From positions 1,115 to 65,114 of the forward strand of contig DASVYJ010000091.1 of NCBI GenBank assembly GCA_036392215.1: a DNA stretch of 64,000 nt. Direction: 5' to 3'. Below, piece by piece: positions 31,529 to 57,911 of this stretch. Below the pieces are notes generated by a model. The model was not told the origin of the DNA. It was given only the letters and a program-made list of their open reading frames with translations, and ran no database searches. The stretch is from Candidatus Limnocylindrales bacterium (GTDB lineage Bacteria; Chloroflexota; Limnocylindria; Limnocylindrales; CSP1-4). Each line of letters starts with the position of its first letter. The stretch's first letter is position 1. A program made the translations under genes and the position numbers.

Positions 31529-31529
31529 G

Positions 31530-37479: not shown

Positions 37480-37547
37480 CGTGTTCGTTCTCCCTCTCTG
37501 GCAGCCGTCGCCTCGGCGACGAGCGTGGTGACGGTGGGGCGGCGCGT

Positions 37548-38642: not shown

Positions 38643-38691
38643 CTCTTCGGGGATACCTCCGGCACTCGTGCTCGCCGTATGAGACCAAATC

Positions 38692-38722
38692 ATCGATCAT
38701 CGATGATAGGGCCGAACGGCCC
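38692..38722 (+). promoter_or_regulatory. 31-bp composite palindromic motif, copy 1 (ATCGATCATCGATGAT-A-GGGCCGAACGGCCC)
   Basis: A relatively AT-rich palindromic half next to a GC-only palindrome (GGGCCG-AA-CGGCCC). It lies in the divergent promoter region between tal (start 38642) and the GNAT gene (start 38921). Confidence 0.5.
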
Positions 38723-39977: not shown

Positions 39978-40084
39978 TTGCCCCTCCCCGGGAAGCCCGC
40001 CGAGTCTGTCGCCCGGCAGGCCCGCCTGCCCGAGTCGTGCGACCGATCCGCTGGAGGGCGCGATCGGACAGTCGGAGGTGTTCG

Positions 40085-40699
40085 GTGGAGACGGAAACCA
40101 GGAACACGATCCCGCTCTGGTTGGCGGTGGCCATCACGGTCTGTGTCTCGTTGCCGTTCGGCATCTGGCTCGGCAACTACAACCTGCCGATCTGGGCCTC
40201 GTTCATCGTGTGGGCCGAGTACTTCGCCCTCGGCGCGAAGCCCTCGGCGCTCAAGATCATGGTCCCGGCCTTCATCCTCGGGGTGATCGTGGCCGAGATC
40301 ATCATGACCGGCTACATGCTCGGCTCGAAGGGGATCGGGACCGGGACGATCCTGTCGGTCGGGGACTGGGCCTTCACGCTCGACAACCTGGTCCTGTTCA
40401 TCGCGTGCTTCATCGGGTTCTGCATCTTCATCTACGCCATGAAGTACTTCCCGGTCACCCAGACGGGCTCCCTGCCGTTCTTCAACGGGATCTCGATGGG
40501 CCTGGCCGTCTTCTTCACCGGCGCCTTCAACAAGGCCGTCGGGGCGGGCATCGACCCCAATCTGCTCCCCGCGGTCGCGGGCGTCGGGGCGGTCCTGGCC
40601 GGCCTGCTCGGCGCGTTCCTCGGGTGGTTCAACATCGTGATCATGTTCCCGCGGCAGGTCCCGTCCGCCTCCGCAGGCCGCGAGCCGGCCAAGGTCTGA
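40085..40699 (+). CDS. integral membrane protein (possibly DUF1097-like)
   Basis: GTG at 40085 with a GGAGG SD. The track ORF start at 40037 is Arg-rich. 4-5 TM helices. Lower GC and different codon usage than the flanks. Confidence 0.55.
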   Translation: METETRNTIPLWLAVAITVCVSLPFGIWLGNYNLPIWASFIVWAEYFALGAKPSALKIMVPAFILGVIVAEIIMTGYMLGSKGIGTGTILSVGDWAFTLDNLVLFIACFIGFCIFIYAMKYFPVTQTGSLPFFNGISMGLAVFFTGAFNKAVGAGIDPNLLPAVAGVGAVLAGLLGAFLGWFNIVIMFPRQVPSASAGREPAKV

Positions 40700-42733: not shown

Positions 42734-43447
42734 ATGCGCCGCAGCGCCCCGATCTCACGCAGCACCCTCAGCGACCAGGTCAAGGAGTACCTGCTCCAGG
42801 CGATCATGGCCGGGGAGTTCGCTCCCGGGTCGCGGATCGTCGAGACCCGCGTCGCCCGGGACCTCGGCATCAGCCAGGGCCCCGTCCGCGAGGCGCTGCG
42901 GGACCTCGAGGCGCTCGGCGTGATCGAGAGCACCGCCTTCCAGGGCGCCCGCGTCCGGCACCCGAGCAAGGCCGAGCTGCTGGAGGCGTACGGGATCCGA
43001 GCCGAGCTCGAATCCCTCGGCGCCCGGCTCGCCCTGCCCCGGGTGACGGACGCGGACCTGGAGGAGCTCCAGGACCTCGTGTCGGAGATGCTCCGGGCGG
43101 CGACGCTCGGGGACACCCGCGCGGAGGCCCGCATCGACGCCACCTTTCACACCCGGGTGATCGAGATCGCCGGGAACACGACGCTGCAGCGGGTCTGGCG
43201 CTACCTCGAGCCGGTCTCGCGGACCTACATCACCTTCGTCACCCCCGGCATCGACGCACGTCGGATCGCCGACGTCCACGGCCCGATCGTCGAGGCGCTC
43301 CGGCGCCGCGACCCGGAGCAGGCGGTCGAGGCCGTCCACCGCCACTTCCAGGTCGCCGGGGCACAATTCGTGGCGGGCTTCCGGGACGACCCGGAGGCCG
43401 CGCCCGGGGCCGCGCTCGCGGCGCCAGCCGAGCTGGCCGCAGGCTAG
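42734..43447 (+). CDS. GntR-family transcriptional regulator (FadR/FCD subfamily)
   Basis: HTH region (VARDLGISQGPVREALRDLEALGVIES) followed by an FCD domain. Confidence 0.75.
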   Translation: MRRSAPISRSTLSDQVKEYLLQAIMAGEFAPGSRIVETRVARDLGISQGPVREALRDLEALGVIESTAFQGARVRHPSKAELLEAYGIRAELESLGARLALPRVTDADLEELQDLVSEMLRAATLGDTRAEARIDATFHTRVIEIAGNTTLQRVWRYLEPVSRTYITFVTPGIDARRIADVHGPIVEALRRRDPEQAVEAVHRHFQVAGAQFVAGFRDDPEAAPGAALAAPAELAAG

Positions 43448-43597
43448 GCCGCGGCTGCCAGACCGCCGGGAGGTCCTTCGGGCACTCGGACCGTCCCGTC
43501 GCCGGCCCTGCCCGCGCCGACCGGACCTGCACGCACAGCCACCACGCCGCCACGACACCACCCCGCCGGGCGTTCCGGCGACCGGAGCAAGGAGCAC

Positions 43598-44485
43598 ATG
43601 GACCAGCAGCTGCGACTGTCAGAGGAGATGTCGGCCGGGAGCGCGCGGCTGCGCGTGGACGTGTTCGGCGGTGAGCCGCGCGAGCACGTCCTGGAGGACA
43701 TGAACTTCCTCAACTACCGTCTCGCCGATGTCCGCCTCGAGCCGGCAGTCACCCTCCCCGAGCCTGACATCGTCTGGCACCAGGACGGCGAGAAGGACAT
43801 CTGCTACGAGCAGGGCCGGATGCGCTTCACTGGCCCGTGGCCGGCCGGCCCGATCCAGAAGGTCATCGTCGCCATGCTCGCCCTGCGGATGGAGGCGACC
43901 GGCCTGCATCCCTTCCACGCCTCGGCCGTCCGCTACCGCGACCGGACCGTGATGTTCCTTGGCGGCGAGTCGAACCACGGCAAGAGCATGGCCCAGCTCG
44001 AGGCCTGCCGCCGCGGAGCCCTCCTGGTCTCGACCGAGACGACAGTGGTCGACGAGGCGGCTCGGGCGGTCATGGGCTCGAAGGAGCCGTTCATCAAGAA
44101 GCGCACCGAGGGGACCGAGCGGGCCGACAAGGCCGCCCCCGAGCGCGGCGTCCAGAAGTTCTTCGAGGCGATGCCGACCTGGGAGCTGTACCCGGAGGTG
44201 AGCCCGGTCGACGTCGTCGTCGTGCCGGCGATCGACGGCAACTTCGACCCCACACTGAGCGAGATGATCCCCTTCGAGCGCCAGTTCCAGACGCTCCACT
44301 CGCTCCAGAACTACTTCCTGCTGAACGAGCTGCTGGCGCCGGGCTTCCCGATGCCGATGGTCGACACGGAGGCCCTCCGGCGGACCCGGGCCGGCTTCGT
44401 GGCCCGCTTCAGCGAGCGGCCCTACTACTTCGTCCGCGCAGCGACCCCCCAGGTCCTGATGGACGAGGTCGACAAGGTCATCTGA
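43598..44485 (+). CDS. HPr-kinase-C-terminal-domain-like P-loop protein (putative small-molecule/protein kinase)
   Basis: AAGGAGC SD. The motif LHPFHASAVRYRDRTVMFLGGESNHGKSMAQLEACRRGALLVSTETTVVDE matches the HprK-like Walker A region. 295 aa. The first Mo-hydroxylase gene starts 19 nt after its stop. Confidence 0.5.
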   Translation: MDQQLRLSEEMSAGSARLRVDVFGGEPREHVLEDMNFLNYRLADVRLEPAVTLPEPDIVWHQDGEKDICYEQGRMRFTGPWPAGPIQKVIVAMLALRMEATGLHPFHASAVRYRDRTVMFLGGESNHGKSMAQLEACRRGALLVSTETTVVDEAARAVMGSKEPFIKKRTEGTERADKAAPERGVQKFFEAMPTWELYPEVSPVDVVVVPAIDGNFDPTLSEMIPFERQFQTLHSLQNYFLLNELLAPGFPMPMVDTEALRRTRAGFVARFSERPYYFVRAATPQVLMDEVDKVI

Positions 44486-44504
44486 GCGGAGGCGCGGCAG
44501 CGCG

Positions 44505-45365
44505 ATGCAGACCTTCGCCTACGAGCGGCCGACGACGCTCGCCGAGGCCGTCGCCCTCCTCGAGCGCCACGGCCCAGACGCTCGGCCGCTGGCCGGCGGC
44601 ACGGACCTCGTCATCGGCCTCCGCGACCGGAGCGTGAGCCCGGCGGTGGTCGTCGACCTCAAGCGGGTGGCCGAGCTCTGCTCGGACATCCGGGCGGCGG
44701 ACGGCTGCCTCGTCATCGGGGCGCGGACGGTCATGACCGACGTGATCGCCGACGAGCGGGTGCGGCGGCATTTCCCGGCCCTGGCCGAGGCGGCCAACGT
44801 CGTTGGCTCGATCCAGATCCGCAACCGGGCCACAGTGGCCGGCAACATCTGCAACGGCTCGCCCGCCGCGGACACCACCCCGCCGCTCCTCGTCTACGGG
44901 GCGGTCGTGGTCGTCGCCGGCCCGGCCGGGTCGCGCCGCATCCCGATCGACGACTTCGTCGTCGGGCCGGGCGTCACGGACCTCCGGCGGGGCGAGCTCG
45001 TCACCGCCATCGAGCTGCCGCTGCCGACGGCGCACCAGGGCTCCGCCTACACCCGCCTGACGCGGCGGCGGGGGACCGACCTCGCCTCCGTGACCCTCTG
45101 CGTGTCCGTCGACGAGGCGGGCGTGACCCGCCTGGCCTACGGCAGCGTCGGGCCGCGGGCGTTCCTCGTGACCGACGAGAGCGGTGTCCTGGCCGACCCG
45201 GCCGCGTCGGCCGAGGCGAAGGCGACGGTCCTCGACGGCCTGTTCGCGGCCGCGAGCCCGTCCCCCCGCTCGCTGCGGGCCGGGCCGGAGTACCGCCGGG
45301 CCATGCTCCGCGTCCTCGGAGCGCGGGCGTTGCAGACCGCCGTCGAGCGGCTGGCGAAGGGATGA
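44505..45365 (+). CDS. molybdenum hydroxylase FAD-binding subunit (CoxM/XdhB-like), set 2
   Basis: Motifs LAGGTDL and VAGNICNGSPAADT. 286 aa. Confidence 0.8.
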   Translation: MQTFAYERPTTLAEAVALLERHGPDARPLAGGTDLVIGLRDRSVSPAVVVDLKRVAELCSDIRAADGCLVIGARTVMTDVIADERVRRHFPALAEAANVVGSIQIRNRATVAGNICNGSPAADTTPPLLVYGAVVVVAGPAGSRRIPIDDFVVGPGVTDLRRGELVTAIELPLPTAHQGSAYTRLTRRRGTDLASVTLCVSVDEAGVTRLAYGSVGPRAFLVTDESGVLADPAASAEAKATVLDGLFAAASPSPRSLRAGPEYRRAMLRVLGARALQTAVERLAKG

Positions 45366-45850
45366 CGACGATGCCATCGAGCCTGCCCATCGAGCTCACC
45401 GTCAACGGGCGGCGCCGGTCGATCGAGGTCGAGGTCAACCACACCCTCCTCGACGTCCTCCGCGACGACCTCGGCCTGGCCGGCACCAAGGAGTGCTGCG
45501 ACGTCGGCGAGTGCGGCGCCTGCACGGTCGAGGTCGATGGCCGGGCGGTCAACTCCTGCCTGATGCTGGCGGTCGAGGCCGACGGCGCCGCGGTCACGAC
45601 CGTGGAGGGCCTGGCGACCGACGGGCGGCTGAGCCTGCTGCAGGACGAGTTCCTGGCCAAGGGCGCGGTGCAGTGCGGCTTCTGCATCCCGGGCCAGCTG
45701 ATGGCCGCCCACGCCCTGCTGGCCGGCAACGCCCACCCCAGCGTGGCGGACGTCCACGAGGCGCTGGCCGGCAACCTCTGCCGCTGCGCGGGCTACGAGC
45801 AGATCACCGAGGCGGTCCTGGCCGCCGCGGCCGCAGAGGCGGAGCGATGA
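45362..45850 (+). CDS. molybdenum hydroxylase (2Fe-2S) subunit, set 2
   Basis: Cluster motifs CDVGECGACTV and CGFCIPG...CRCAGY. ATG overlaps the upstream stop. Confidence 0.85.
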   Translation: MTTMPSSLPIELTVNGRRRSIEVEVNHTLLDVLRDDLGLAGTKECCDVGECGACTVEVDGRAVNSCLMLAVEADGAAVTTVEGLATDGRLSLLQDEFLAKGAVQCGFCIPGQLMAAHALLAGNAHPSVADVHEALAGNLCRCAGYEQITEAVLAAAAAEAER

Positions 45851-48117
45851 GCAGCCACGGCAGCGGCATCGGCGCCTCGCCGAAGCGCGTCGGCGGCTAC
45901 GACCGGGTCACCGGGCAGCATGCCTACGTCGCCGACGTCCGGCTGGCCGACGCGCTCCACGCCAAGCTCGTCACGGTCCCGGTCGCCCGGGCCCGGATCA
46001 TCGCCATCGACACGTCGGCCGCCCTGGCCGTACCAGGGGTCCGCTGCGTCCTCACCGCGGCCGACCTGCCCCAGCCGGTGCCCCGCTTCGGCCCCCAGCA
46101 CGAGGACCGGCCGGTCATCGCCGTCGGCGAGACGAAGTACCACGGCGACCCCGTGGCCGCGGTCGCGGCCGAGACGAAGGACGCCGCCGAAGAAGCGGCC
46201 GGTCTCGTCCGCATCGAATACGAGGAGCTGCCCGCGGTCTTCACCGTGGCGGCCGCCCTGGCGCCGGACGCGCCGCTCGTCCAGGACCCGGTCCTCCGGC
46301 CCGGCGACCCGCTGGCAAGCACCAACGTCTTCAATCAGCACCTCGTCGGCTGGGGCGACGTGGAGGCCGCGGAGGCCGACCTCGTCGTCGAGCACGACTA
46401 CTCGTTCCCGATGGTCACCCATTTCGCCATCGAGCCGCACGGCTTCATCGCCGCGCCCGACGGCGACGGGATCGCGGTGTGGAGCTCGATCCAGCACCCC
46501 AACTGGCTCCAGAAGGTCCTCGCCCGGATCCTGGGGCTGCCGCTCTCCAAGGTCCGCGTCCGCGCCCCGGACCCGGGCGGCGGTTTCGGCGGCAAGCAGC
46601 ACGCCAAGTACGAGCCGCTCGTCGCCTTCCTCGCCCTCCGGACCGGGCGGCCCGTCCGCCTCGTCCTGACCCTCGACGAGACGTTCCAGGCCGTCCGGCG
46701 CGCCGCGGCCGCGATCCACGTCCGGACCGGCCTGCGGTCCGACGGCCGGATCGCCTTCCAGGACATCCGGGCGGACTACCTCGTCGGCGCCTACGTCGAC
46801 ATCGCCGACCGCGTCGTCAACAAGGGCAGCTACCCGGGCGCCGGGCCGTACGGCATCCCGGCCGTCCGCATCGTCGCCCGGACCGTCCTGTCGCACACCG
46901 TGCCCTCCACCGCGTTCCGCGGCTTCGGCAACCCCCAGGTCAACTGGGCCGTGGAGTCGAACCTCGACGACGCGGCCCGCCAGCTCGGCCTCGACCCGCT
47001 GGAGCTGCGGCTGCGCAACCTGGCCCACCGCGGCGACGCCTTCATCCCATTCGACACCCACGCCGACGGCGACTGGGAGCAGACCGTCCGCCGGGCGGCC
47101 GAGCTGATCGGCTGGGACAGTCCTGTCCCGCCGGGCCACGGCCGGGGCATCGCCCTCGGCATCAAGTCCGGGCCGACGACCGGTCTTTCGTACTCGACGG
47201 TCCGCCTGCTCGCCGACGGCAGCGTCATCGTCTACGCCGGGACCTCCGACATGGGCCAGGGCGCCCGGACCGTGCTCGCTCAGATCGCCGCCCAGGAGCT
47301 CGGCGCGCCGCTCGACTGGGTGACCGTGGTGATGGGCGACACGGCCGTCGTGCCGTACGATCAGCAGACCTCGGCGAGCCGCTCGACCGTGCTGATGGGC
47401 AACTCCGTCCTGCGGGCCTGCCGCGACGTCCAGCGCCAGCTGGCCGAGATGGCCGCTCGCGTCCACGGTGTGGCCCTCGAGCAGGTCAGCGTGGCCGACG
47501 GCTTCGTCCGCCTGCCGGACCGCGAGCTGCCGATCGTCGAGGTGCTGAAGGCGGGCCTCGGCCGCCTCGGCGGCGAGGTCATCGGCAACGGGGTGATGCG
47601 CAAGGAGATGGAGCCCGAGCATCCCCTCGGCGGCAGCGCGGCCTTCTTCGAGTTCAACTGCACCGCCGTCGAGGTGACGGTCGACGAGGGGACGGGCGAG
47701 ATCACGATCGTCCGCCACGTCACCGTCTCCGACGTGGGCCGGGCCATCAATCCGCTCCAGGTCCGGATGCAGGACGAGGGCGCGGCGATCATGGGCCTCG
47801 GCCACACCCTCATGGAGCACTACATCTTCGACGAGGCCGGCCGCATCCGGAACCTGGGCGCCATCGACTATCGCGTCCCGACGAGCCTCGACCTCCCGGT
47901 CCGCCTGGAGAGCGCGATCGTCGAGAACGCCGACGGGCCGGGGCCCTACGGCTCGAAGGGGATGAGCGAGGGCGCCCTGCTCTGCGTCGCCCCGGCGGTC
48001 GCCGCTGCCGTCCGCGACGCGACGGGGGCCGTCATCCGCGACCTGCCGCTCAGCCCGGAGCGCGTCTGGCACGCCCTCCAGGAGCGGCCGGCGCGCGTCC
48101 CGCTGGAGGTGCCCTGA
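45847..48117 (+). CDS. molybdenum hydroxylase large MoCo-binding subunit (xanthine-dehydrogenase family), unsplit, set 2
   Basis: Start MSSHGSGIG, in frame with track ORF 45184..48117 and overlapping the FeS-subunit stop (ATGA). 756 aa with hammerhead and MoCo domains (GGGFGGK, GQGARTVLAQIAA). Confidence 0.85.
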   Translation: MSSHGSGIGASPKRVGGYDRVTGQHAYVADVRLADALHAKLVTVPVARARIIAIDTSAALAVPGVRCVLTAADLPQPVPRFGPQHEDRPVIAVGETKYHGDPVAAVAAETKDAAEEAAGLVRIEYEELPAVFTVAAALAPDAPLVQDPVLRPGDPLASTNVFNQHLVGWGDVEAAEADLVVEHDYSFPMVTHFAIEPHGFIAAPDGDGIAVWSSIQHPNWLQKVLARILGLPLSKVRVRAPDPGGGFGGKQHAKYEPLVAFLALRTGRPVRLVLTLDETFQAVRRAAAAIHVRTGLRSDGRIAFQDIRADYLVGAYVDIADRVVNKGSYPGAGPYGIPAVRIVARTVLSHTVPSTAFRGFGNPQVNWAVESNLDDAARQLGLDPLELRLRNLAHRGDAFIPFDTHADGDWEQTVRRAAELIGWDSPVPPGHGRGIALGIKSGPTTGLSYSTVRLLADGSVIVYAGTSDMGQGARTVLAQIAAQELGAPLDWVTVVMGDTAVVPYDQQTSASRSTVLMGNSVLRACRDVQRQLAEMAARVHGVALEQVSVADGFVRLPDRELPIVEVLKAGLGRLGGEVIGNGVMRKEMEPEHPLGGSAAFFEFNCTAVEVTVDEGTGEITIVRHVTVSDVGRAINPLQVRMQDEGAAIMGLGHTLMEHYIFDEAGRIRNLGAIDYRVPTSLDLPVRLESAIVENADGPGPYGSKGMSEGALLCVAPAVAAAVRDATGAVIRDLPLSPERVWHALQERPARVPLEVP

Positions 48118-49007
48118 TGCTCACCCGCTCCGAGGTCGGTCCCGTCGCCGGGCTGCCGGCCGAGCAGGTCGTCCGCGCGGCGGGCCTCGTCCGCGAGGGT
48201 CGCACCTACTCGCTCGCTGCGGCGCGCTACCCGGGCATGCCACTGTTCCCCGGCCACCCGCCGTTCCAGGTCCTCAACTACCGCACGCCCCGCGGCATCC
48301 GGGTCAGCGGCGCGAAGCCGTGGGGTCCCGTCAACGACGCCGGGCTCGGCTACATGGCCGAGTACGTCATGGCGACCTCACATTCCGGCGCCCATGTCGA
48401 CGCGCTGGCCCACATGACCGTCGGCGACGACATGCACTGGTACGGCGGGGGGAGGCCGGACGAGCACCTGACCGACTTCGGGCCGACCTTCGGCGACGCG
48501 GAGAAGCTGCCGCCGTTCTTCACCCGCGGCGTCCTCCTCGACGTGCCGGCGCATCGCGGCCTCGAGGTCCTGCCGGCCGGCTCGCCGGTCGGCGCCGCCG
48601 AGCTCGAGGCGATCTGCGAGGCGCAGGGCGTGACCGTCGAGCCGTGGGACGTCGTCCTCATCCGGACCGGCTACATGGGCCTCTGGCCCGACGCCGAGCG
48701 GATGGCGGCCCACAAGACGGCGGGCCCGGACATCTCGGCCGCGCGCTGGCTCCTGGAGCGCGGCGTCGTCGCCAGCGGCACGGACACCGAGACCTACGAG
48801 GTCCAGCCGGCGCCCGACCCCGGGCCGGCGGGCAACCCGCAGCCGGTCCACACCCTGCTCCTCATCGAACACGGCATCTATCTCATGGAGAGCCTCGACC
48901 TGGAGGCCCTCGCCCGCGACCGCATCCACGAGTTCCTGTTCGTCGCCCTGCCGCTCAAGATCCGGGGCGCGACGGGCTCGATGATCGACCCGCTCGCCGT
49001 CATCTAG
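48117..49007 (+). CDS. cyclase-family protein (kynurenine-formamidase-like metal-dependent hydrolase, PF04199)
   Basis: TGATG overlap with the MoCo subunit and a GGAGG SD. HxGxH-type region (SHSGAHVDALAHM). 296 aa. Confidence 0.75.
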   Translation: MLTRSEVGPVAGLPAEQVVRAAGLVREGRTYSLAAARYPGMPLFPGHPPFQVLNYRTPRGIRVSGAKPWGPVNDAGLGYMAEYVMATSHSGAHVDALAHMTVGDDMHWYGGGRPDEHLTDFGPTFGDAEKLPPFFTRGVLLDVPAHRGLEVLPAGSPVGAAELEAICEAQGVTVEPWDVVLIRTGYMGLWPDAERMAAHKTAGPDISAARWLLERGVVASGTDTETYEVQPAPDPGPAGNPQPVHTLLLIEHGIYLMESLDLEALARDRIHEFLFVALPLKIRGATGSMIDPLAVI

Positions 49008-49016
49008 GAGGCCTCC

Positions 49017-50111
49017 GTGACCCTCGCCGCCGTGCCCCAGCCCGCCAGCCCCGCCCTGCCGGCGACGATGGAGGCCCTCGTCGTGCTCGAGCCCGAGCGC
49101 TTCGAGATCCGCGAGGTGCCGGTCCCGACGCCCGGGCCCGACCAGGTCCTGGCTCGTGTCGGGGCGGTCAGCATCTGCGGCACCGACAGCCACCTGGTCC
49201 ACGGCGACTACCCGGGCTTCTGGCCGCCGGCCTTCCCCTTCACCCCTGGGCACGAGTGGGCCGGCGAGCTCGTCGCCCTGGGTCCCGGGGCCGAGCGCCA
49301 CGGCTGGCGGGTCGGCGACCGCGTCGCGGGCACGAGCCATGACGCCTGCGGGGTCTGCCAGGCCTGCGTCGAGGGCCGCTACAACCTCTGCGCCAACTAT
49401 GGGGTGCCGGGCCTCCACCGCCAGTACGGCCACACGGTCCAGGGCGCGGACGCGACGTACGTCGTGCAGGGCGTCAAGACGATCTTCCGGCTACCCGAGG
49501 CCCTGAGCTTCGCCGAGGGCGCCGTCGTCGACCCGGCGTCCATCGCGCTCCACGTCGCGAACCGCGCCGAGGTCCGCCCGGGTGACACGGTCGCGGTCAC
49601 CGGCGCAGGAGCGATCGGGCTCTTGGCGGCCCAGGCCGCGCAGGTCCGGGGCGCGGCCCGCGTCCTGGTGGTGGGCCGGGGACGGCGGCTGCAGGTCGCC
49701 GCCACGTTCGGCTTCGAGACGATCGACACTGCGGACGGCGACCCGGTGGCCGAGCTGCGGGCGCGGACCGAGGGCGTCGGGGTCGACCGCGTCCTCGAGT
49801 GCGCCGGGGTCCCGGCGACGCTCTCCTGGGCCCTGGCGATGCTCCGCCGGGGCGGCCGCTGCGCCGTGGTCGGCATCCCCACCGAGCCGGTCGGCCTCGA
49901 ACTCCAGCGGCTCGTCCTCGACGAGCTGGAGCTCGTCGGGGTCCGGGCCAGCGCCGGCGAGATGCGCCACGTCCTGCCGCTCGTCGCCCAGCGCCGCATC
50001 GACGTCGGGCGGATCATCACCCACCGCTTCCCGCTGGCCGCGTACGGCGAGGCGCTCCGGACGTTCCGCGACCCCGGGGCGGGTGCGATCAAGATCGTCC
50101 TGGAGCCCTGA
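49017..50111 (+). CDS. zinc-binding alcohol dehydrogenase (MDR family)
   Basis: GTG at 49017 after GGAGG; an alternative ATG lies at 49068. Catalytic and structural Zn motifs (ICGTDSH, GHEWAG, CGVCQAC) and the GAGAIG NAD fold. Confidence 0.8.
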   Translation: MTLAAVPQPASPALPATMEALVVLEPERFEIREVPVPTPGPDQVLARVGAVSICGTDSHLVHGDYPGFWPPAFPFTPGHEWAGELVALGPGAERHGWRVGDRVAGTSHDACGVCQACVEGRYNLCANYGVPGLHRQYGHTVQGADATYVVQGVKTIFRLPEALSFAEGAVVDPASIALHVANRAEVRPGDTVAVTGAGAIGLLAAQAAQVRGAARVLVVGRGRRLQVAATFGFETIDTADGDPVAELRARTEGVGVDRVLECAGVPATLSWALAMLRRGGRCAVVGIPTEPVGLELQRLVLDELELVGVRASAGEMRHVLPLVAQRRIDVGRIITHRFPLAAYGEALRTFRDPGAGAIKIVLEP

Positions 50112-50174: not shown

Positions 50175-50996
50175 ATGTGCGCGAACGTGCAAGGATATGA
50201 CGTGACGCGCAATATCCTGAGCGAAGACGGCGCGCGGGCGCTCGCCGCAGAGCGCCGGCGACGGCTGCGGGACCTGGTCGAGACGCGCCACGCCGCCCGC
50301 CTCGAGGAACTCAGCGTCGCGCTCGGCGTCTCGCAGGCGACGGTCCGGCGGGACCTGGACCAGCTGGCCGCCGAGGGCAAGCTCCGTCGCGTCCACGGTG
50401 GCGCGGTGGTCGTCGACGAGCGGCCGAGCGAGGTCCACTTCGACGTCAAGGCCGGCGAGGCGGCCGAGGCCAAGGAGCGGATCGCCGCCCGGGCCATCCA
50501 GCTCCTCGCCCCGGACGACACCGTCTACCTCGACAGCGGCAGCACCGTCCTCGCGGCCGCCCGCCTGCTTCGCGACTGGGAGCGCCTGACAGTGGTGACG
50601 AACAGCCTCCCGGTCGCGACGACGCTGATGGGCCGCGGGCCGCGGGTCATCGTCGTCGGCGGCGAGCTGCGAGCCACCAGCCAGGCCCTCGTCGGGCCGC
50701 TCAGCCGGCTCATGCTCGAGGGGCTCCACCTCGACCGGGCGCTGCTCGGGACATTCGCCCTGTCGCTCGAAGGCGGCCTGATGACGACCGAGCCGGCGGA
50801 GGCCTACACCAAGGAGCTCGTCCTGGGCCGGGCGCGCGAGGTGATCCTGCTGGCCGACAGCCGCAAGGTCGGCACGAGCTCGTTCGTGGGGGCCGGGCGA
50901 CTCGAGGCCGTCGACATCCTGGTGACCGACGCCGGCATCGCCGACGGCGCGGTCCGCAGCCTCGAGCGGCGGGGCATCAAGGTGATCAAGGCATGA
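50175..50996 (+). CDS. DeoR/GlpR-family transcriptional regulator
   Basis: N-terminal HTH (ERRRRLRDLVETRHAARLEELSVALGVSQATVRRDLDQLAAEGKLRRVHGG) followed by a DeoR C-terminal sugar-binding domain. The start may be the downstream GTG near 50202. Confidence 0.75.
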   Translation: MCANVQGYDVTRNILSEDGARALAAERRRRLRDLVETRHAARLEELSVALGVSQATVRRDLDQLAAEGKLRRVHGGAVVVDERPSEVHFDVKAGEAAEAKERIAARAIQLLAPDDTVYLDSGSTVLAAARLLRDWERLTVVTNSLPVATTLMGRGPRVIVVGGELRATSQALVGPLSRLMLEGLHLDRALLGTFALSLEGGLMTTEPAEAYTKELVLGRAREVILLADSRKVGTSSFVGAGRLEAVDILVTDAGIADGAVRSLERRGIKVIKA

Positions 50997-51046
50997 GCGT
51001 CGGACCGACCGTCACGCGCCGGGGACGACGGAGCACGGAGGCCCCG

Positions 51047-53350
51047 ATGGTGGCGGATGCGGTCTACCACAGCGACACCCGCCCGGATTTCGAGCCGTTC
51101 GAGACGTCGCTCGGCGCGATCCGCGGCTTCGAGGCGCGGCCCGACCTGGCCGAGCTGCTGGCCGCCGGCCGCCTCAGCCGCGAGGCGGCGCTCGGCCTGC
51201 TCGACGACATGCTCGCCATCCGCGAGCTGGAGGAGATGATCGTCCGGCTCCGCTCCGGCGGCTACGAGCCGCTCCCCGGCTACGACTACCGCGGCCCCAC
51301 CCACGTCTCGATCGGCCAGGAGGGCTCGCCGGTCGGCGCCTGCACCGCCCTCCGGCCGGACGACCACATCACCAGCTCGCACCGGGGGCACGGCGACGCG
51401 GTCGCCAAAGGCTTCGCGGCCATCCGCCGGATGAGCGACGAGGAGCTCCGCGCGCGTGTGCCCGGGTCGACCGCCGGGGACCATGATGGGCTCGTCGCCG
51501 AGGCCCTCGAGGAGCACGTCTACCGGGTCATCGCCGAGCTGTTCGGCAAGGAGGAGGGCTACTGCCGGGGCCGGGGTGGCGGGATGCACATCGGCGACTT
51601 CGCGACCGGTAACCTGGGGGCCAACGCGATCGTCGGCGGCAGCGTGCCGATCGCGACGGGAGCGGCGATGGCCCTCCGCTACCGGCGCTCCGACCGCGTC
51701 GTCTGCTGCTTCGCCGGCGACGGTGCCTACGCCAACGGTGTCGTCCTCGAGTCGCTCAACTGGGCCGCCCAGGCGCAATGGACCAACCACCTGGCCGGCG
51801 ATCGGCCGTTCGGGCTGCCGATCATCTACTTCATCCAGAACAACCACTACGGGATGACCCACCGGACGGACGACGAGGTGATGGGCGTCCGCCACCTGGC
51901 CCGGCGGGCGGCCGGCTTCGCCGACGACAACATGCACGCCGAGGTCGTCAACGGCATGGACGCCCTCGCGGTCCACGAGGCCATCGGCCGCGCGGCGGCG
52001 CTCTGCCGCCAGGGTCGCGGCCCGGTCCTCATCGAGGCGAGCACGTACCGCTACTACGGCCACTCCCTGTCGGACCCCCGGAATGAGTACAGGACGCGGG
52101 ACGAGGAGGCGGCCTGGCGCGCCGCGGACCCGATCGAGCGGCTGGAGCACGAGCTCGTGGCCGCGGGCGTGGCCGACGAGGCCGGTATCGCGGCGCTCGA
52201 GGCCGCGGCGCGGGAGCGGAACGCGCGGGCGGCGCGCCGCGCAGCTGCGGCGACCGACCCCGAGCCCGTCGACGTGCTGCGCTACCTCTACGCGGGGACG
52301 GTCGCGGACGTCGTGCCGCTCGGCGACGGCGACGTCGAGACCCTCGCCGAGCCGCCCGTCGCCACCCGGGACGCCGCGGGCGGGATCAGCTACCGGGACG
52401 CCATCCGCGAGGCGCTCGTCGGCGAGATGCTGCGCGACCGCCGGGTCATCCACTACGGCGAGGACGTCGCCGACTACGGCGGCGCGTTCAAGCTGACCAA
52501 GGGGCTCCTGGAGGCGTTCGGCCGCGACCGCGTCTTCAACACGCCGATCAGCGAGGCCTGCATCATCGGCACGGGAGTCGGCGCGGCCATGGTCGGGCTG
52601 CGACCCGTCGTCGAGCTGATGTACATGGACTTCGCCCTGATGGCCTCGGACCAGATCGCCAACCAGGCCGCCAAGTGGCACTACATGAGCGGCGCCCAGG
52701 TCACCGTCCCGCTCGTCATCCGCGCCTCCGTCGGCGCCGGCAAGGGCTACGGCGGGCAGCATTCGCAATCGCTCGAGAGCATCTTCACCCACACCCCGGG
52801 CCTGAAGGTCGTCTACCCGGCCACCCCGGCGGACGCGAAGGGCCTCCTCGCGGCGGCGATCCGCTCCGACGACCCGGTGCTCTTCGTGGAAAGCCAGGGT
52901 CTCTACGGGACGAAGGGGCCGGTGCCGGAGGGCGAGCACGTCGTCCCGCTCGGCGTCTCCCGCGTCGCCCGCGAGGGCTCGGACGCGACGATCGTCGCCT
53001 GGGGCCCCGCCGTCCCCGATGCCCTCGTCGCGGCAGAGCGGCTGGCGGCCGAGCACGGCATCTCGGCCGAGGTGATCGACCTGCGGACGCTCGTCCCGCT
53101 GGACATCGAGACGGTCCTCGACTCGGTCCGCCGGACGGGCCGCTGCGTGGTGGCCAGTCAGGCGGTCCTGATCGGCAGCTACGTCAACGAGATCGTGGCC
53201 CGCATCCAGGCCGAGGCGTTCGACTTCCTCGACGGCCCCGTCGGCCGCGTGGGCGCCGCCAACGGCATCTCGCCCCAGGCCGAGGCGCTCGAACGGGCCT
53301 TCCTGCCCGATGCGAGCTCCATCCTCGACGCCGTGCTCGCGCTCATCTGA
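51047..53350 (+). CDS. fused E1 alpha-beta subunit of a TPP-dependent 2-oxoacid (acetoin/pyruvate/branched-chain type) dehydrogenase complex
   Basis: ATG at 51047 with a GGAGG SD; an alternative ATG at 50993 overlaps the DeoR stop. The alpha part has the TPP motif (GDGAYANG...N). The beta part carries transketolase-like Pyr and C-terminal domains. 767 aa single polypeptide. Confidence 0.8.
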   Translation: MVADAVYHSDTRPDFEPFETSLGAIRGFEARPDLAELLAAGRLSREAALGLLDDMLAIRELEEMIVRLRSGGYEPLPGYDYRGPTHVSIGQEGSPVGACTALRPDDHITSSHRGHGDAVAKGFAAIRRMSDEELRARVPGSTAGDHDGLVAEALEEHVYRVIAELFGKEEGYCRGRGGGMHIGDFATGNLGANAIVGGSVPIATGAAMALRYRRSDRVVCCFAGDGAYANGVVLESLNWAAQAQWTNHLAGDRPFGLPIIYFIQNNHYGMTHRTDDEVMGVRHLARRAAGFADDNMHAEVVNGMDALAVHEAIGRAAALCRQGRGPVLIEASTYRYYGHSLSDPRNEYRTRDEEAAWRAADPIERLEHELVAAGVADEAGIAALEAAARERNARAARRAAAATDPEPVDVLRYLYAGTVADVVPLGDGDVETLAEPPVATRDAAGGISYRDAIREALVGEMLRDRRVIHYGEDVADYGGAFKLTKGLLEAFGRDRVFNTPISEACIIGTGVGAAMVGLRPVVELMYMDFALMASDQIANQAAKWHYMSGAQVTVPLVIRASVGAGKGYGGQHSQSLESIFTHTPGLKVVYPATPADAKGLLAAAIRSDDPVLFVESQGLYGTKGPVPEGEHVVPLGVSRVAREGSDATIVAWGPAVPDALVAAERLAAEHGISAEVIDLRTLVPLDIETVLDSVRRTGRCVVASQAVLIGSYVNEIVARIQAEAFDFLDGPVGRVGAANGISPQAEALERAFLPDASSILDAVLALI

Positions 53351-53394: not shown

Positions 53395-54735
53395 ATGGCC
53401 CACCCGATCCTGATGCCCAAGCCCGGTCAGATGACCGAGGAATGCGTCGTCGTGGCCTGGCGCAAGCGCGAAGGCGATCCCGTGCGCAAGGGCGACGTCC
53501 TGTTCGAGATCGAGACCGACAAGTCGGTGATGGACGTCGAGGCCTTCGACGAGGGCATCCTCCTGAGGCGCCTGGTCGAGGAGGGACAGACCGTCCCGGT
53601 GAACGCGGTCTGCGCCTACGTCGGCGAGCCCGGCGAGGCGGTCCCGGAGGTCGAGGCGGGGCAGCCCTTCACCCTGGCCGCCGAGCAGGCCGCAGCGCCC
53701 GTCTCGTCGCCCGTCGTCGCGGCGCCGGCGGGGTCCGCCGAGTCGACGGCATCGCGGCGGGCTGCGACGCCGACGGCGCCGGTCCCGTCCTCCACGTCGC
53801 TCGCGCCGCCGTCCGGAAGGCGGGCGATCAGCCCGCGCGCCAGCCGCCTCGCGGCCGAGGCGGGGATCGACCCGCGCGGCCTCGCGGGGAGCGGTCCGGG
53901 TGGCCGGATCGTCGAGCGTGACGTGCGGGCCGCCGTCGCGGCGGCAGACCCGGTTGCAGCGCCCGGTGCGGCATCGTCCGCGCCGCCGCCCGCCCCGCCC
54001 GCTGCGCCCGCGTCCGCCCCGCCGGCCCTTCCGGCCTGGGACGGCGAGGAGGAGCCGCGGCCGCTCAGCCGGATGCGCCGGGTCATCGCCGAGCGCCTCA
54101 GCTGGAGCACCTCGACGATCCCGCACTTCAGCGTCACCGTCAGCGTCGACATGACCCGCCTCCTCGCCCTGCGGAGCGAGCTGAAGGCGGCCGGCACGCA
54201 GCTCAGCGTCACCGACTTCGTCCTGGCGGCCACGGCCCAGACCCTCGCCGAGTTCCCCGAGGTGAACTCGCGGACCGACGGGAGCCAGCTCTGGCTGCGC
54301 CGCCGCGTCCACCTCGGCCTGGCCGTCTCGGTCCCCAACGGCCTCGTCGTGCCGGTCCTGCGCGACGCCGACCGGCGCTCCCTGGTGGAGCTCCACGAGC
54401 GGGCCGTCGCCCTCGCCGACGCCGCCCGCAACGGGACGCTGCCGCCCGACGAGCTCATCGGCAGCACGTTCACGGTCTCGAACCTCGGCATGTTCGGGGT
54501 CGACGAGTTCCGGGCCATCATCAACCCCGGCGAAGCGGCGATCCTTGCCGTCGGCAGCGTCCTGCCGACCGCGGTCGCCGTCGGCGAGGGGCTTGCCGTG
54601 CGGCAGATGATGAAGCTGACCCTCTCGGCCGATCACCGCCTCGTGGACGGCGAGCTGGGGGCGCGATTCCTCAACGCGCTCCGGCGCCGGCTGCAGGACG
54701 TCGAGGCGTTCCGGGCCGAGGTGCGGATGGCCTGA
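53395..54735 (+). CDS. dihydrolipoamide acyltransferase (E2) with lipoyl, E3-binding and catalytic domains
   Basis: Start MAHPILMPKPGQMTEE, in frame with track ORF 52675..54735. Lipoyl-lysine motif EIETDKS. Ala/Pro linkers. The SxxDHRxxDG catalytic motif is present as SADHRLVDG. Confidence 0.8.
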   Translation: MAHPILMPKPGQMTEECVVVAWRKREGDPVRKGDVLFEIETDKSVMDVEAFDEGILLRRLVEEGQTVPVNAVCAYVGEPGEAVPEVEAGQPFTLAAEQAAAPVSSPVVAAPAGSAESTASRRAATPTAPVPSSTSLAPPSGRRAISPRASRLAAEAGIDPRGLAGSGPGGRIVERDVRAAVAAADPVAAPGAASSAPPPAPPAAPASAPPALPAWDGEEEPRPLSRMRRVIAERLSWSTSTIPHFSVTVSVDMTRLLALRSELKAAGTQLSVTDFVLAATAQTLAEFPEVNSRTDGSQLWLRRRVHLGLAVSVPNGLVVPVLRDADRRSLVELHERAVALADAARNGTLPPDELIGSTFTVSNLGMFGVDEFRAIINPGEAAILAVGSVLPTAVAVGEGLAVRQMMKLTLSADHRLVDGELGARFLNALRRRLQDVEAFRAEVRMA

Positions 54736-54925
54736 CGCCCAGCGGCGTCGGTCGAGTTCGGGGAAGGAGGCAGGGCTGGCTAGCTGAACGGGATGGGGCT
54801 TCCGTCGCCCGCGTTCCCGAGCGTGTCGCACCGGGTCCCGACCCGGCCGTCGCTCGGGCCCGGAAGCCAGGCACGGCCGGCCGTCGCCGGCCGCTGGCAG
54901 CTGCGAACGGGCAAAGGAGCCAGAG

Positions 54926-56170
54926 ATGGGCAGGACGATCCTCCTGATCGGCACCCTCGACACCAAGGGCCACGAGTACGCCTATGTCCGTGACCTGATC
55001 ACGGCCCGCGGCCATCGGGCGTTCATGCTCGACGCTGGGGTGCTGGGCGAGCCACCGCCGGGCTTCGTTCCCGACAGCGCCGCGGCCCGGACCGCTGACG
55101 CCGGCGGCGAGTCGCTCGCCGCGCTCCGCGAGCGGCACGACCGCGGTCACGCCCTGGAGGTCATGGGCAAGGGCGCCCGCGCGCTCGCCCTCGAGCTCCT
55201 CGCGGATGGTGGCTTCGACGCGGTCCTGACGATGGGCGGCTCGGGCAACACCTCGATCGGCGCGACCGCGATGCAGGCCCTGCCCGTCGGGCTGCCCAAG
55301 CTCATCGTCTCGACGATGGCCTCCGGCAACGTCGGCCCGTACGTCGACGTGAAGGACATCTCCATGATGTACTCCGTCGTCGACGTGGCCGGCCTCAACC
55401 GCATCGGCCGGCGGATCCTGGCGAACGCCGCCGGGGCCGTCTGCGGGATGGCCGAGCAGGTGGTCCCCGAGGCCGAGGAGAAGCCGCTCGTCGCGGCGAC
55501 GATGTTCGGCGTCACCACGCCCTGCGTCGACCGCTTCCGTGAGCGGCTCGAGTCGGCCGGCTTCGAGCTCCTCGTCTTCCACGCCGTCGGGTCCGGCGGC
55601 CGGGCGATGGAATCGCTCGTCAGCGACGGCTTCATCACCGCCCTCGGCGACATCACCACGACGGAGTGGTGCGACGAGCTGGTCGGCGGCGTCCTCTCCG
55701 CGGGCCCGACCCGCCTCGACGCGGCCGCCGCCAGGGGCATCCCCCAGGTCGTCTCGCTCGGCGCCCTCGACATGGTGAACTTCGGGCCGATGGAGACCGT
55801 CCCGGAGCGATTCCGCGGCCGGAAGCTCTACGTCCACAACCCCCAGGTCACCCTGATGCGGACGACCCCGCAGGAGTGCGCCCAGCTCGGCGAGATCATC
55901 GCCGCCAAGCTCAACCGCTCGACCGGTCCCGTCGCCCTGTTCGTGCCCCTGCGGGGCGTCAGCGCGATCGACGTCGAGGGCACGCCGTTCTTCGATCCCG
56001 AGGCCGACGCCGCGCTCTTCGAGGCCATCCGCGCCCACCTCGACCGCTCCGTCGTCGACCTCGTGGAGCTGGACCTTGCCATCAACGACCCGGTCTTCGC
56101 CGACGCGATGGCCGACCGCCTGCTGGCGATGCTCGGCGCCCGCCAGCCCGTCGCCGCCGCCAGCCACTAG
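54926..56170 (+). CDS. Tm-1-like ATP-binding protein (UPF0261 family)
   Basis: 414 aa with an N-terminal MGRTILLIGTLDTKGHEY pattern typical of UPF0261. Paired with the next gene as in other genomes. Confidence 0.7.
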   Translation: MGRTILLIGTLDTKGHEYAYVRDLITARGHRAFMLDAGVLGEPPPGFVPDSAAARTADAGGESLAALRERHDRGHALEVMGKGARALALELLADGGFDAVLTMGGSGNTSIGATAMQALPVGLPKLIVSTMASGNVGPYVDVKDISMMYSVVDVAGLNRIGRRILANAAGAVCGMAEQVVPEAEEKPLVAATMFGVTTPCVDRFRERLESAGFELLVFHAVGSGGRAMESLVSDGFITALGDITTTEWCDELVGGVLSAGPTRLDAAAARGIPQVVSLGALDMVNFGPMETVPERFRGRKLYVHNPQVTLMRTTPQECAQLGEIIAAKLNRSTGPVALFVPLRGVSAIDVEGTPFFDPEADAALFEAIRAHLDRSVVDLVELDLAINDPVFADAMADRLLAMLGARQPVAAASH

Positions 56171-56179
56171 GAGCCTGTC

Positions 56180-57031
56180 ATGCCGTTCATCCCGCGCCAG
56201 GAGATCGTCCGCCGCCTCCGCGCCCAGATCGACGCCGGCCGACCCATCGTCGGCTGCGGCGCCGGCACCGGCATCTCGGCCAAGATGGCCGAAGCCGGTG
56301 GGGCGGACCTGATGATCATCTACAACAGTGGCCGCTACCGGATGGCGGGCCGCGGTTCGCTGGCGGGCCTGCTCGCCTACGGCGACGCCAACGGCATCGT
56401 CGTGGAGATGGCCGCCGAGGTCCTGCCGGTGGTCCGGGACACCCCGGTCCTCGCCGGCATCAACGGCACGGACCCGTTCCGGCTGCCGCGCGTCTTCCTC
56501 CGCCAGCTCAAGGAGCTCGGCTTCGACGGCGTCCAGAACTTCCCCACGGTCGGCCTCATCGACGGCAGCTTCCGGGCGAACCTGGAGGCCACCGGGATGG
56601 GCTACGGCAAGGAGGTCGAGTGGATCGCGATCGCCCACGAGCTCGACATGTTCACCTCGCCGTACGTCTTCGACGCTGACGACGCGCGGGCGATGGCCGA
56701 GGCGGGGGCCGACCAGCTCGTCGCCCACGTCGGGCTCACGACGGCGGGCACGATCGGCGCCGGCGTCGCGCTGACGCTCGACGAGGCCATCGAGCGGGTC
56801 ATGACGATCGCCGAGGCGGGCCGCTCGGTCCGCTCCGACATCATCGTCATCTGCCATGGCGGGCCGTTCGACGAGCCCGAGAACGTCGGGGAGGCGCTCC
56901 GGCGGATGCCGGGCGTCCAGGGCTTCTTCGGTGCGTCCAGCATCGAGCGCCTGCCCACGGAGCGGGCGATCCGCGGCCAGGTCGAGGAGTTCAAGCGACT
57001 CGCGGTGGCCCAGCCGGCCGGCGTTGCCTGA
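56180..57031 (+). CDS. phosphoenolpyruvate-hydrolase-like TIM-barrel protein (partner of the Tm-1-like protein)
   Basis: 283 aa ([27 protein letters not shown]...). PEP-mutase / isocitrate-lyase superfamily-like. Confidence 0.65.
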
Positions 57032-57107
57032 CGCGCGCCACTCGAGTCCATTCCCAGCGGGGCCCGCTCCGGCGGGCCCCGCTCCCCTTCGCCATCCCGG
57101 AGCCACG

Positions 57108-57911
57108 ATGACCGAGTCCCGCCGCGCCGCGCCACGCACCGCCGTCCCGTCCGCCGGCGGGGCGGCGATGGTGCTCGACGTCGCCCTGGTGCCGGCCGCC
57201 GCGCGCACCTGGCCGGAGACCGTCTGCGTCGTCGTCGACGAGCTGCGGGCGAGCTCGACGATCACGACCTGGCTCGACCTGGGCTGCTCGACGCTGTACC
57301 TGACCCGCGGCCTGGCGGAGGCGCGCCGGCTGGCCGGGCAGCACGGCGCCCTGCTGGCGGGCGAGCGACGGGGACTGACGCCGCGCGGTTTCGACGTCAA
57401 CAACTCGCCCGCGGCGCTGGCCCGCCTCGAGGTGGCCGGCCGCCCCGGTGTGCTCTCCACGTCCAATGGGACGGCGGTCCTCTCGCGGCTCCGCCACATG
57501 CCCGCGGTCCTCGTCGGCTGCCTGCTGAACGCCTCCGCGGTCGCGGTCGCGGCTCTCGAGCTGGCGGTCGCCCTGGACCGGCCCGTCGGCATCGTCTGCG
57601 CGGGGGTCCTCGGCCGGTTCGCCTTCGACGACGCCTACGCGGCCGGCGTGATCGCGGATCGGCTCCTGGCCGCCGCGGCCGCGGCCGGGACCGCGCTCGA
57701 GAGGACGGACGCGACGCTCGCGGTCCGCAGGCTCGCGGCGTCCTGGCCCGACCCCATCGCCGCGCTCGAGGCCTCGGCGAGCGGGCACCTCGTCCACGCC
57801 ATCGGCCAGGGCGAGGACGTCGCCTTCTGCGGGCGGGTCGACGTGAGCTCGACGGTGCCGGTGCTGTGGCCGGACCTGCCGTTGCGCGTGGAGCCGCTCG
57901 AGCGGCCGTAG
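57108..57911 (+). CDS. 2-phosphosulfolactate-phosphatase (ComB)-family protein
   Basis: ComB-like pattern (VDELRASSTI..., NGT, ...). Start at 57108 or at the ATG at 57168 (MVLDVALV). Confidence 0.6.
   Translation: MTESRRAAPRTAVPSAGGAAMVLDVALVPAAARTWPETVCVVVDELRASSTITTWLDLGCSTLYLTRGLAEARRLAGQHGALLAGERRGLTPRGFDVNNSPAALARLEVAGRPGVLSTSNGTAVLSRLRHMPAVLVGCLLNASAVAVAALELAVALDRPVGIVCAGVLGRFAFDDAYAAGVIADRLLAAAAAAGTALERTDATLAVRRLAASWPDPIAALEASASGHLVHAIGQGEDVAFCGRVDVSSTVPVLWPDLPLRVEPLERP

Follow-up and report, generated by a model that had tools for sequence, protein, structure and literature searches.

A UPF0261–TIM-barrel gene pair followed by a ComB-family phosphatase gene in Limnocylindria and Dormibacterota

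The three genes and their protein families

A 64,000-nucleotide stretch of contig DASVYJ010000091.1 from a Candidatus Limnocylindrales bacterium (Chloroflexota), referred to here as the window, carries on its plus strand three consecutive genes that encode a UPF0261 (Tm-1-like) protein, a TIM-barrel protein of the PEP_hydrolase-like family and a homologue of the phosphatase ComB. The trio closes a larger conserved catabolic supercluster that is specific to Limnocylindria and Dormibacterota. The locus comprises the following features:

54926-56170 (+): UPF0261 / Tm-1-like protein, 414 aa; predicted ADP-forming kinase
56180-57031 (+): PEP_hydrolase-like (TBST) TIM-barrel partner, 283 aa; Pfam PF09370
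57056-57083 (+): GC-rich stem-loop with a 12-bp perfect stem and the loop TCCG; putative terminator, attenuator or 3' stabiliser
57168-57911 (+): ComB-family (PF04029) phosphatase homologue, 247 aa (267 aa from start 57108)

The window has a G+C content of ~73%, and long spurious open reading frames (ORFs) are common at such composition. All three plus-strand genes, as claimed in an earlier note made from the sequence alone, were confirmed by Pfam matches and by the third-position GC content, which reaches 0.9-1.0 in the correct frame. The corresponding frame plot follows one plus-strand frame over 54.9-57.0 kb and another over 57.05-57.9 kb, and it identifies the long antisense ORF at 54671-57592 as spurious. 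The mechanical ORF start of the ComB homologue at 56856 was rejected because the starts of its homologues and the public gene call lie further in. The public call begins at ATG 57108, preceded by a GGAG ribosome-binding site, and in the alignment all 36 homologues have their start at the position corresponding to ATG 57168 and open with M-x-[ILV]-D-V-A-L-V-P. Only 9 bp separate the UPF0261 and barrel genes, and the barrel and ComB genes are 136 bp apart from start 57168 or 76 bp from start 57108. The ComB gene had been described as following the pair directly; it is indeed the next gene downstream on the same strand, but it lies behind a gap of 76-136 bp that contains the hairpin.

The UPF0261 protein matches PF06792 (N-terminal, 202 bits) and PF23189 (UPF0261_C, 325 bits) over its full length and is placed in the NCBIfam subfamily NF002674, whose cut-off of 335 bits it passes with 574. 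Searches of the PDB recovered Tm-1 (E 4e-82, 280 bits) and MarK (9MPY; E 2e-69, 238 bits). MarK is a stand-alone member of UPF0261, a kinase that phosphorylates phenolic ketones with conversion of ATP to ADP and acts ahead of a carboxylase and a separate HAD phosphatase (PMC12624787). Residues D12-T13-K14, G195, H219 and H304 of the window protein correspond to D14-T15-K16, G195, H219 and H304 of MarK; T13, K14, G195 and H219 are invariant among seven diverse UPF0261 members, and the 'acceptor' residues are conserved throughout the family, plant Tm-1 included. Within UPF0261, ATP-dependent, ADP-forming phosphorylation has been demonstrated for MarK E16K only (PMC12624787). The earlier designation as a Tm-1-like 'ATP-binding protein' had the family right but was too narrow: through MarK, ADP-forming kinases of small molecules are known to belong to it (PMC12624787), and on the basis of its sequence the window protein is predicted to be one. 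A second, longer UPF0261 subfamily (~457 aa, with insertions and an N-T-K motif) was found in L018, L020, L024, L025, L027, L031, L014 and L064 (Dormibacterota), in L084 (Petroclostridium) and in L085 (L numbers denote the loci compared). The proposal that this long paralogue is specifically MarK-like was rejected, as it scores 130 bits against MarK and 123 bits against Tm-1.

The barrel protein matches PF09370 with 406 bits over its full length and aligns, also over its full length, with Mesorhizobium Mll9387 (PDB 2P10; E 1e-106, Foldseek TM 0.80). It is extraordinarily conserved, with 82-89% identity across phyla, and is 100% identical to an NCBI protein from a Candidatus Limnocylindrales metagenome-assembled genome (MAG); the remaining window proteins share 70-88% identity with those of Limnocylindria. 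An origin in Streptomyces or another actinomycete, at which the G+C content might hint, was rejected in view of the 70-100% identity to Candidatus Limnocylindrales MAG proteins. Like a phosphate-binding barrel, the barrel protein has conserved CHGGP and GASS loops. Its AlphaFold2 model has a pLDDT of 77.6, with the most conserved (active-site) loops at low confidence. Searching the PDB with a profile built from diverse PF09370 sequences returned 2P10 as the sole remote relative. Beyond 2P10, Foldseek matched the model, again with low-confidence loops, to generic TIM barrels at TM 0.45-0.56, among them PdxS, thiamin-phosphate synthase, triosephosphate isomerase (TIM), class II FBP aldolase, methylisocitrate lyase and KPHMT. 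As regards the kinship with PEP mutase, phosphonopyruvate hydrolase or isocitrate lyase that the name 'PEP hydrolase' would imply, methylisocitrate lyase and KPHMT scored as weakly (TM 0.45-0.52) as the other barrels. Because the fold search leads beyond 2P10 only to such generic phosphate-binding barrels, 'PEP hydrolase' is a family label and not a function.

The ComB homologue matches the Pfam family 2-ph_phosp (PF04029) with 183 bits but falls below every NCBIfam ComB equivalog cut-off (best 146 bits vs 332; TIGR00298 119 vs 175). Its best PDB match is TTHA1438 (2Z0J, E 3e-31), and the motifs DxLRAS, GE, NSP, TxNGT and CAG..G.F..(D/E)D do not vary among 37 sequences and line up with 2Z0J and 2YYV. 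The nearest relatives, from soil and peat MAGs, share at most 64% identity, and the exact window sequence is otherwise confined to short Logan contigs, which stem from two sequencing projects; it is carried by SRR10159347-55. Elsewhere, a PF04029 gene ends the cbb (Calvin-cycle) operon of Allomeiothermus pMESIL01 (L082, 6977-7711), the usual place of phosphoglycolate phosphatase, and another overlaps a PfkB kinase gene in a sugar-acid operon of Mesorhizobium (L083, 7001-7762), which suggests that the roles of PF04029 proteins as phospho-acid phosphatases are broader than that of ComB.

Linkage across genomes and the intergenic hairpin

Scanning one genome per GTDB species with a ComB alignment yielded 51 loci, at which linkage was counted by tblastn of the window proteins, a gene being scored when it lay upstream within 400 bp on the same strand. 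Among the 29 ComB-clade genes with enough upstream sequence, 26 were positioned directly behind either the PEP_hydrolase gene (thus forming the triad) or a long UPF0261 paralogue, whereas the pair was found in none of the 19 loci with distant ComB homologues (Paenibacillus, Methanosphaera and others). The linkage of ComB to the pair in related genomes, the absence of which the earlier note had named as counter-evidence, therefore holds. With the exception of L031, all loci with at least 54% ComB identity belong to Chloroflexota or Dormibacterota MAGs, and the Pfam-annotated contexts of the relatives confirm the triad order. In Dormibacterota, a second ComB copy directly follows a second, long UPF0261 gene, so that both copies sit behind a UPF0261-family gene.

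The UPF0261 and barrel genes, adjacent in the window and at all loci examined, belong to two neighbouring and co-evolving families (PMC5028733); both the neighbourhoods examined here and the published co-evolution bear out the earlier description of the pair as a widely conserved two-gene unit. In a plasmid collection, the barrel gene was present in 243 records and a ComB-like gene in 10, and the single record with both has them 120 kb apart. Since the pair lacks ComB in other phyla and on plasmids, the pair is a generic cassette and ComB a lineage-specific addition. In Rhizobia and haloarchaea, a conserved cupin gene accompanies the pair as a ComB-independent partner (L060, 8869-9282; L061, 8825-9262; L065, 8873-9286), with 47% identity between the Rhizobium and haloarchaeal proteins; a cupin encoded in the window was rejected as their orthologue (24% identity). 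An Ldh_2 (ComC-family) gene lies beside two ComB-less pairs, in L077 and in R. etli. The cultured Petroclostridium sp. X23 (L084) carries a paralogous long UPF0261 gene whose partner encodes a divergent barrel (37% identity); their operon has the order DeoR, RpiB, TIM, RuBisCO-like, Amidohydro_2, the pair, DUF1097 and MBL; DeoR, DUF1097 and MBL are families that it shares with the window. The literature search returned no report on the function of the pair or on a link between ComB and UPF0261. The co-evolution of the pair and the activity of MarK are thus already described, and neither the ComB linkage nor a supercluster of this kind is described in the literature found.

The hairpin between the barrel and ComB genes has a folding free energy (dG) of -31 kcal/mol (z -4.1), and none of 200 shuffled sequences folds as well. 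An equivalent hairpin occurs 15-35 nt past the barrel stop codon in all 16 related loci examined (L002, L004, L009-L012, L016-L018, L021, L025, L026, L028, L029, L032 and L034), with stem sequences that vary and pairing that is kept. In Dormibacterota a T-rich tail comes after the hairpin, and a terminator-like hairpin also occupies this place in some pair-only loci. This conserved element makes co-transcription of the pair with ComB uncertain and a single transcription unit doubtful; judging from the sequence, ComB is probably attenuated or separately transcribed, which bears on the second point that the earlier note had named as counter-evidence, separate transcription units. An Rfam scan of 28-64 kb gave no match, and pattern scans for sigma-70 promoters and intrinsic terminators yielded nothing beyond shuffle expectation, as expected for the composition.

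The surrounding supercluster

Upstream of the trio, the window contains the following further features, identified by the Pfam and, where named, NCBIfam matches:

54875-54892 (+): small hairpin GGCCGGC-CGTC-GCCGGCC, ~35 nt 5' of the UPF0261 start, in the E2/UPF0261 gap
53395-54735 (+): separate E2, 446 aa, with complete lipoyl, E3-binding and catalytic domains (Pfam, NCBIfam)
50993-53350 (+): fused E1 alpha/beta of a 2-oxo-acid / acetoin-type dehydrogenase, 785 aa (Pfam, NCBIfam)
50175-50996 (+): DeoR regulator, with a 4-bp overlap with E1 (Pfam, NCBIfam)
42734-50111 (+): GntR/FCD regulator, 295-aa protein, molybdenum (Mo) hydroxylase (FAD, 2Fe-2S and molybdenum cofactor (Moco) subunits), cyclase-family hydrolase and zinc alcohol dehydrogenase (Zn-ADH) (Pfam)
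29664-38693 (-): operon with transaldolase, semialdehyde dehydrogenase, SDR, MBL hydrolase, truncated pyruvate phosphate dikinase (PPDK), cupin and split transketolase (N, C) (Pfam, NCBIfam)

The gaps are -4 bp between DeoR and E1, 44 bp between E1 and E2, and 190 bp between E2 and UPF0261. The last gap as a whole shows no significant fold (z +1.1), and a GC hairpin at the same relative place, 5' of UPF0261, is kept in transketolase-type relatives. No E3 gene was detected among the window genes scanned with Pfam, and the trio does lie downstream of a module of DeoR, fused E1 and E2, as had been proposed. The E1/E2 module is syntenic with the triad in L001, L010 and L062. In the Dormibacterota version, a gene for E3 (dihydrolipoamide dehydrogenase) stands between those of E2 and E1 (L025, 4647-6062); it is without a counterpart in the Limnocylindria type A loci. 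While the E1/E2 module upstream was thus correctly recognised, the context as first drawn was too narrow, as it also includes transketolase, transaldolase, a methylmalonate-semialdehyde dehydrogenase (MMSDH)-type enzyme, Mo-hydroxylase and the truncated PPDK.

The relatives could be sorted into three types of arrangement. Type A (L001, L010/L062 and L029; 42.7-57.9 kb on the plus strand of the window) has the order GntR, 295-aa protein, three Mo-hydroxylase genes, cyclase, Zn-ADH, E1, E2 and triad, and its block from GntR to Zn-ADH occurs in the same order in L010, L029 and L085 at 70-86% identity. Type B (11 loci) has the order aldehyde dehydrogenase, SDR, MBL, truncated PPDK, cupin, transketolase N, transketolase C and triad; in the window, the type B genes lie on the minus strand at 29.7-38.7 kb. 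Type C (Dormibacterota) begins with cyclase, ADH, E2, E3, E1, long UPF0261 and ComB and continues with aldehyde dehydrogenase, transaldolase, IclR, Y_phosphatase3 and the triad. Types B and C are bordered by genes for molybdate transport and Moco biosynthesis. An assignment of the Mo enzyme as CO dehydrogenase was rejected, the active-site motif being absent from its large subunit. The gene of the 295-aa protein (43598-44485, +), always positioned between the GntR and Mo-hydroxylase genes, encodes a product with a P-loop-like GGESNHGKS motif, 82-86% identity in relatives and no Pfam or NCBIfam match.

With 618 bits vs a cut-off of 448, the aldehyde dehydrogenase falls in the CoA-acylating MMSDH type; the transaldolase, at 108 bits vs 367, is a divergent one. 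This divergent TAL/FSA-family gene adjoins the MMSDH-type gene (35950-38693, -), a pairing that is kept in both phyla, and its product may release a 3-oxopropanoate-type aldehyde from a keto-acid sugar. The PPDK-like protein (31972-34260, -; ~720-760 aa) passes NCBIfam PRK05878 and has ATP-grasp and phospho-histidine domains with no recognisable PEP/pyruvate TIM-barrel domain; in transketolase-type clusters its gene is kept shortly 5' of the stand-alone TIM-barrel gene. For a protein of 594 aa (40937-42721, +), the sole family match is a PEP-utilising mobile (phospho-histidine) domain at the C-terminus; the N-terminal 500 aa match no family. A Y_phosphatase3 gene (26914-27867, +) and a gene for a DUF1097 membrane protein (40037-40699, +) recur in the Dormibacterota cluster and in the Petroclostridium operon, respectively. 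Further upstream (4262-6904, 12278-14652 and 19928-26447), the window harbours pyrimidine-catabolism-like genes (fused dihydropyrimidine dehydrogenase, NCS1 permease, DHO_dh-like, class III aminotransferase and aldehyde dehydrogenase) together with genes for CoxG and for a second Mo-hydroxylase whose large subunit is split.

Possible function of the trio and comparison with known systems

The reading that we favour, at somewhat less than an even chance, is that the trio acts as a module on a sugar-derived keto or hydroxy acid, which is first phosphorylated, then transformed and finally dephosphorylated. In the order of steps that we infer, the UPF0261 protein would transfer phosphate from ATP, leaving ADP, to an oxygen (hydroxyl or enol) of a small acid of this kind, and its obligate barrel partner would bind the acceptor or transform the phospho-intermediate. 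The ComB-family enzyme would later free the product, or a dead-end by-product, of its phosphate by hydrolysing the ester, most likely a 2-O-phospho-carboxylate such as 2-phosphoglycolate, 2-phospholactate or a 2-phospho-C3/C4 acid. Through the hairpin, expression of the phosphatase could differ from that of the kinase and would probably be weaker, and such unequal expression would avoid a futile cycle. The sugar or keto-acid setting indicated by DeoR, GntR, the split transketolase, the TAL/FSA-family enzyme, the MMSDH-type dehydrogenase and E1/E2 was counted in favour of this module, as was the analogy with MarK, a kinase precedent that comes with a carboxylase and a separate phosphatase and whose site residues are kept here. 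Further points in favour are the ComB linkage (26 of 29 near relatives against 0 of 19 distant loci), the intact PF04029 motifs together with the placement of PF04029 genes in the Allomeiothermus and Mesorhizobium operons, the fold neighbours of the barrel, the hairpin and the Petroclostridium operon. An undescribed catabolic route of two abundant, uncultured soil phyla, in which the pair makes and transforms a phosphorylated keto-acid sugar that feeds transketolase, transaldolase and E1/E2 while ComB removes residual 2-phospho-acid, is possible though doubtful. It is a matter of speculation whether this would be an inositol-type route, with the divergent transaldolase acting on 2-deoxy-5-keto-gluconate or 5-keto-gluconate and the MMSDH on the semialdehyde; hints in this direction are an IolM-like ADH, the IolA-type dehydrogenase, KduI/IolB beside transaldolase in L062, and PfkB.

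Several observations weigh against such a module. Kinase and phosphatase acting on one compound would be futile without an intervening step; the acceptor of MarK is a phenol rather than a sugar acid; and the hairpin with its gap of 76-136 bp may point to separate transcription of ComB. In addition, L031 has a pair without ComB after it, one Limnocylindria genome has a long UPF0261 paralogue with no ComB following, and three other genomes carry the pair without ComB, usually beside TetR and with a barrel 82-87% identical. As the pair exists elsewhere without ComB, the phosphatase is not intrinsic to the reaction of the pair. The main rival, which we consider rather unlikely but to be reckoned with, is that ComB works independently as a phosphatase for housekeeping or metabolite repair, acting for example on 2-phosphoglycolate or 2-phospholactate, and serves the transketolase/transaldolase/E1 pathway and not the UPF0261 pair; adjacency would then reflect a shared pathway or regulon and not a substrate-product relation. 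The conserved hairpin and the gap part ComB from a pair that functions without it elsewhere, a ComB-family gene takes the place of phosphoglycolate phosphatase in the Allomeiothermus cbb operon, and in L019, L023, L030 and L035 a ComB-clade gene lies beside other supercluster genes with no pair directly upstream. A repair role alone is harder to reconcile with the position of 26 of the 29 ComB genes behind a UPF0261-family unit whatever module precedes it (E1/E2, transketolase or IclR-phosphatase), and with the second Dormibacterota ComB, which follows a second, different UPF0261 gene at ~40-140 bp. That three unrelated genes are chance neighbours in this genome is hardly credible and was rejected: the pair does occur in many unrelated contexts, but the neighbourhood counts already contradict this explanation, order and orientation being kept in species of two phyla and in three upstream contexts.

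Two more specific substrates were weighed. Activation of an aromatic compound in the manner of MarK-AcvCDE-AcvF, with ComB replacing the HAD phosphatase and a phenolic ketone or aldehyde from lignin or peat as substrate, is improbable. The sole known UPF0261 activity is phenol phosphorylation with a dedicated phosphatase after it (PMC12624787). The acceptor-site residues of MarK are conserved in the window protein, and the relatives are peat, fen and soil MAGs. The MBL hydrolase, SDR, aldehyde dehydrogenase and dikinase-like protein of the supercluster also recall the phosphorylation-initiated cresol pathway. Nevertheless, a biotin carboxylase (AcvCDE), a ring-cleavage dioxygenase and a CoA ligase are all missing, the dikinase-like protein is scored as a PPDK and not as phenylphosphate synthase, and DeoR and GntR regulators occur with transketolase and transaldolase; moreover, MarK suffices alone, whereas the window protein has a TIM-barrel partner, and the supposed acceptor residues are those of the whole family, including plant Tm-1. 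Even less probable is that the trio handles a sulfonated or phosphorylated C3 acid, be it phosphosulfolactate, which the earlier note had suggested, or sulfolactate (as in coenzyme M or sulfolactate metabolism) or a product of sulfoquinovose breakdown by sulfo-transaldolase or sulfo-transketolase routes. The founding member of PF04029 is 2-phosphosulfolactate phosphatase. The set of transaldolase-family enzyme, split transketolase and aldehyde dehydrogenase superficially recalls the sulfo-TAL and sulfo-TK pathways; a TauE/SafE gene adjoins the pair in Streptomyces sp. SAT1, and a sulfite-oxidase-family gene lies ~8 kb from the long UPF0261 paralogue in L085. Against this, the ComB homologue scores far under the equivalog cut-offs, and the aldehyde dehydrogenase is of the CoA-acylating MMSDH type. 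ComA, ComC, ComDE, SuyAB, Xsc and TauE were absent from the annotated window genes and from ±10 kb around the annotated related triad loci, a sulfoquinovosidase or sulfite exporter was likewise not found in the window or triad loci, and the sole ComA-ComB pair found, in Brevibacillus, is without the UPF0261 pair. Overall, the pair, its linkage to ComB and the upstream module in the earlier interpretation are supported, but the sulfonate idea is not.

The pair is a widely distributed conserved unit in bacteria, archaea and fungi, its plant fusion Tm-1 is a virus-resistance protein, and the stand-alone MarK is the sole relative with known activity. A lineage in which the pair has a constant phospho-acid phosphatase partner and defined C-C cleaving enzymes narrows the search for its substrate, and the trio is a concrete, expressible three-protein system for testing. 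If the undescribed route were true, it would provide the first physiological function for the UPF0261 and TBST pair, from bacteria and archaea to fungi and plants. The supercluster is also a large conserved catabolic island in Limnocylindria and Dormibacterota, groups that are frequent in metagenomes from peat and soil and of which no cultured member carries it.

Among described systems, the Tm-1-like UPF0261 and TBST pair (PMC5028733; PDB 3WRV-3WRY and 2P10) has the same two families adjacent as in the window, with ~60% identity between the window barrel and 2P10 in structural alignment; unlike in the window, the described pairs have no ComB-family neighbour, and in plants they are fused into one protein. 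The acetovanillone module MarK-AcvCDE-AcvF of Novosphingobium aromaticivorans (PMC12624787) resembles the window in that a UPF0261 gene is clustered with a dedicated phosphatase gene, and its logic (phosphorylate, transform the phospho-intermediate, dephosphorylate) may be likened to that proposed for the trio. However, MarK is a stand-alone homodimer without a TIM-barrel partner, whereas the window protein is paired with one; the phosphatase is a HAD enzyme there and a PF04029 homologue here; and the intervening enzyme is a biotin carboxylase, while Pfam annotation found neither an AcvCDE-type biotin carboxylase nor an AcvF-type HAD gene in the window cluster. A ComB-like nature of AcvF / HpeD was rejected, AcvF being a HAD enzyme.

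With the ComB of coenzyme M biosynthesis (EC 3.1.3.71), the window homologue shares PF04029, all motifs and a similar length, and the solved structures 1VR0, 2YYV and 2Z0J belong to the same fold family. It has ~30% identity to the coenzyme M enzyme, under all equivalog cut-offs, and unlike that enzyme it is not accompanied by ComA, ComC or ComDE, is tied to a kinase-like pair and is hosted by a non-methanogenic member of the Chloroflexota. The acid-sugar kinase pathways of DUF1537 (threonate, erythronate and apiose, some with RuBisCO-like proteins) employ an unusual two-domain kinase that phosphorylates a keto-acid sugar for downstream C-C cleaving or decarboxylating enzymes, under DeoR/GntR-type control. 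Although their kinase belongs to another family and the window cluster has neither a DUF1537 protein nor a class II aldolase, these pathways may be likened to the present system by context: DeoR/GntR control is common to both, and the UPF0261 pair of Petroclostridium is accompanied by a RuBisCO-like protein, RpiB and TIM.

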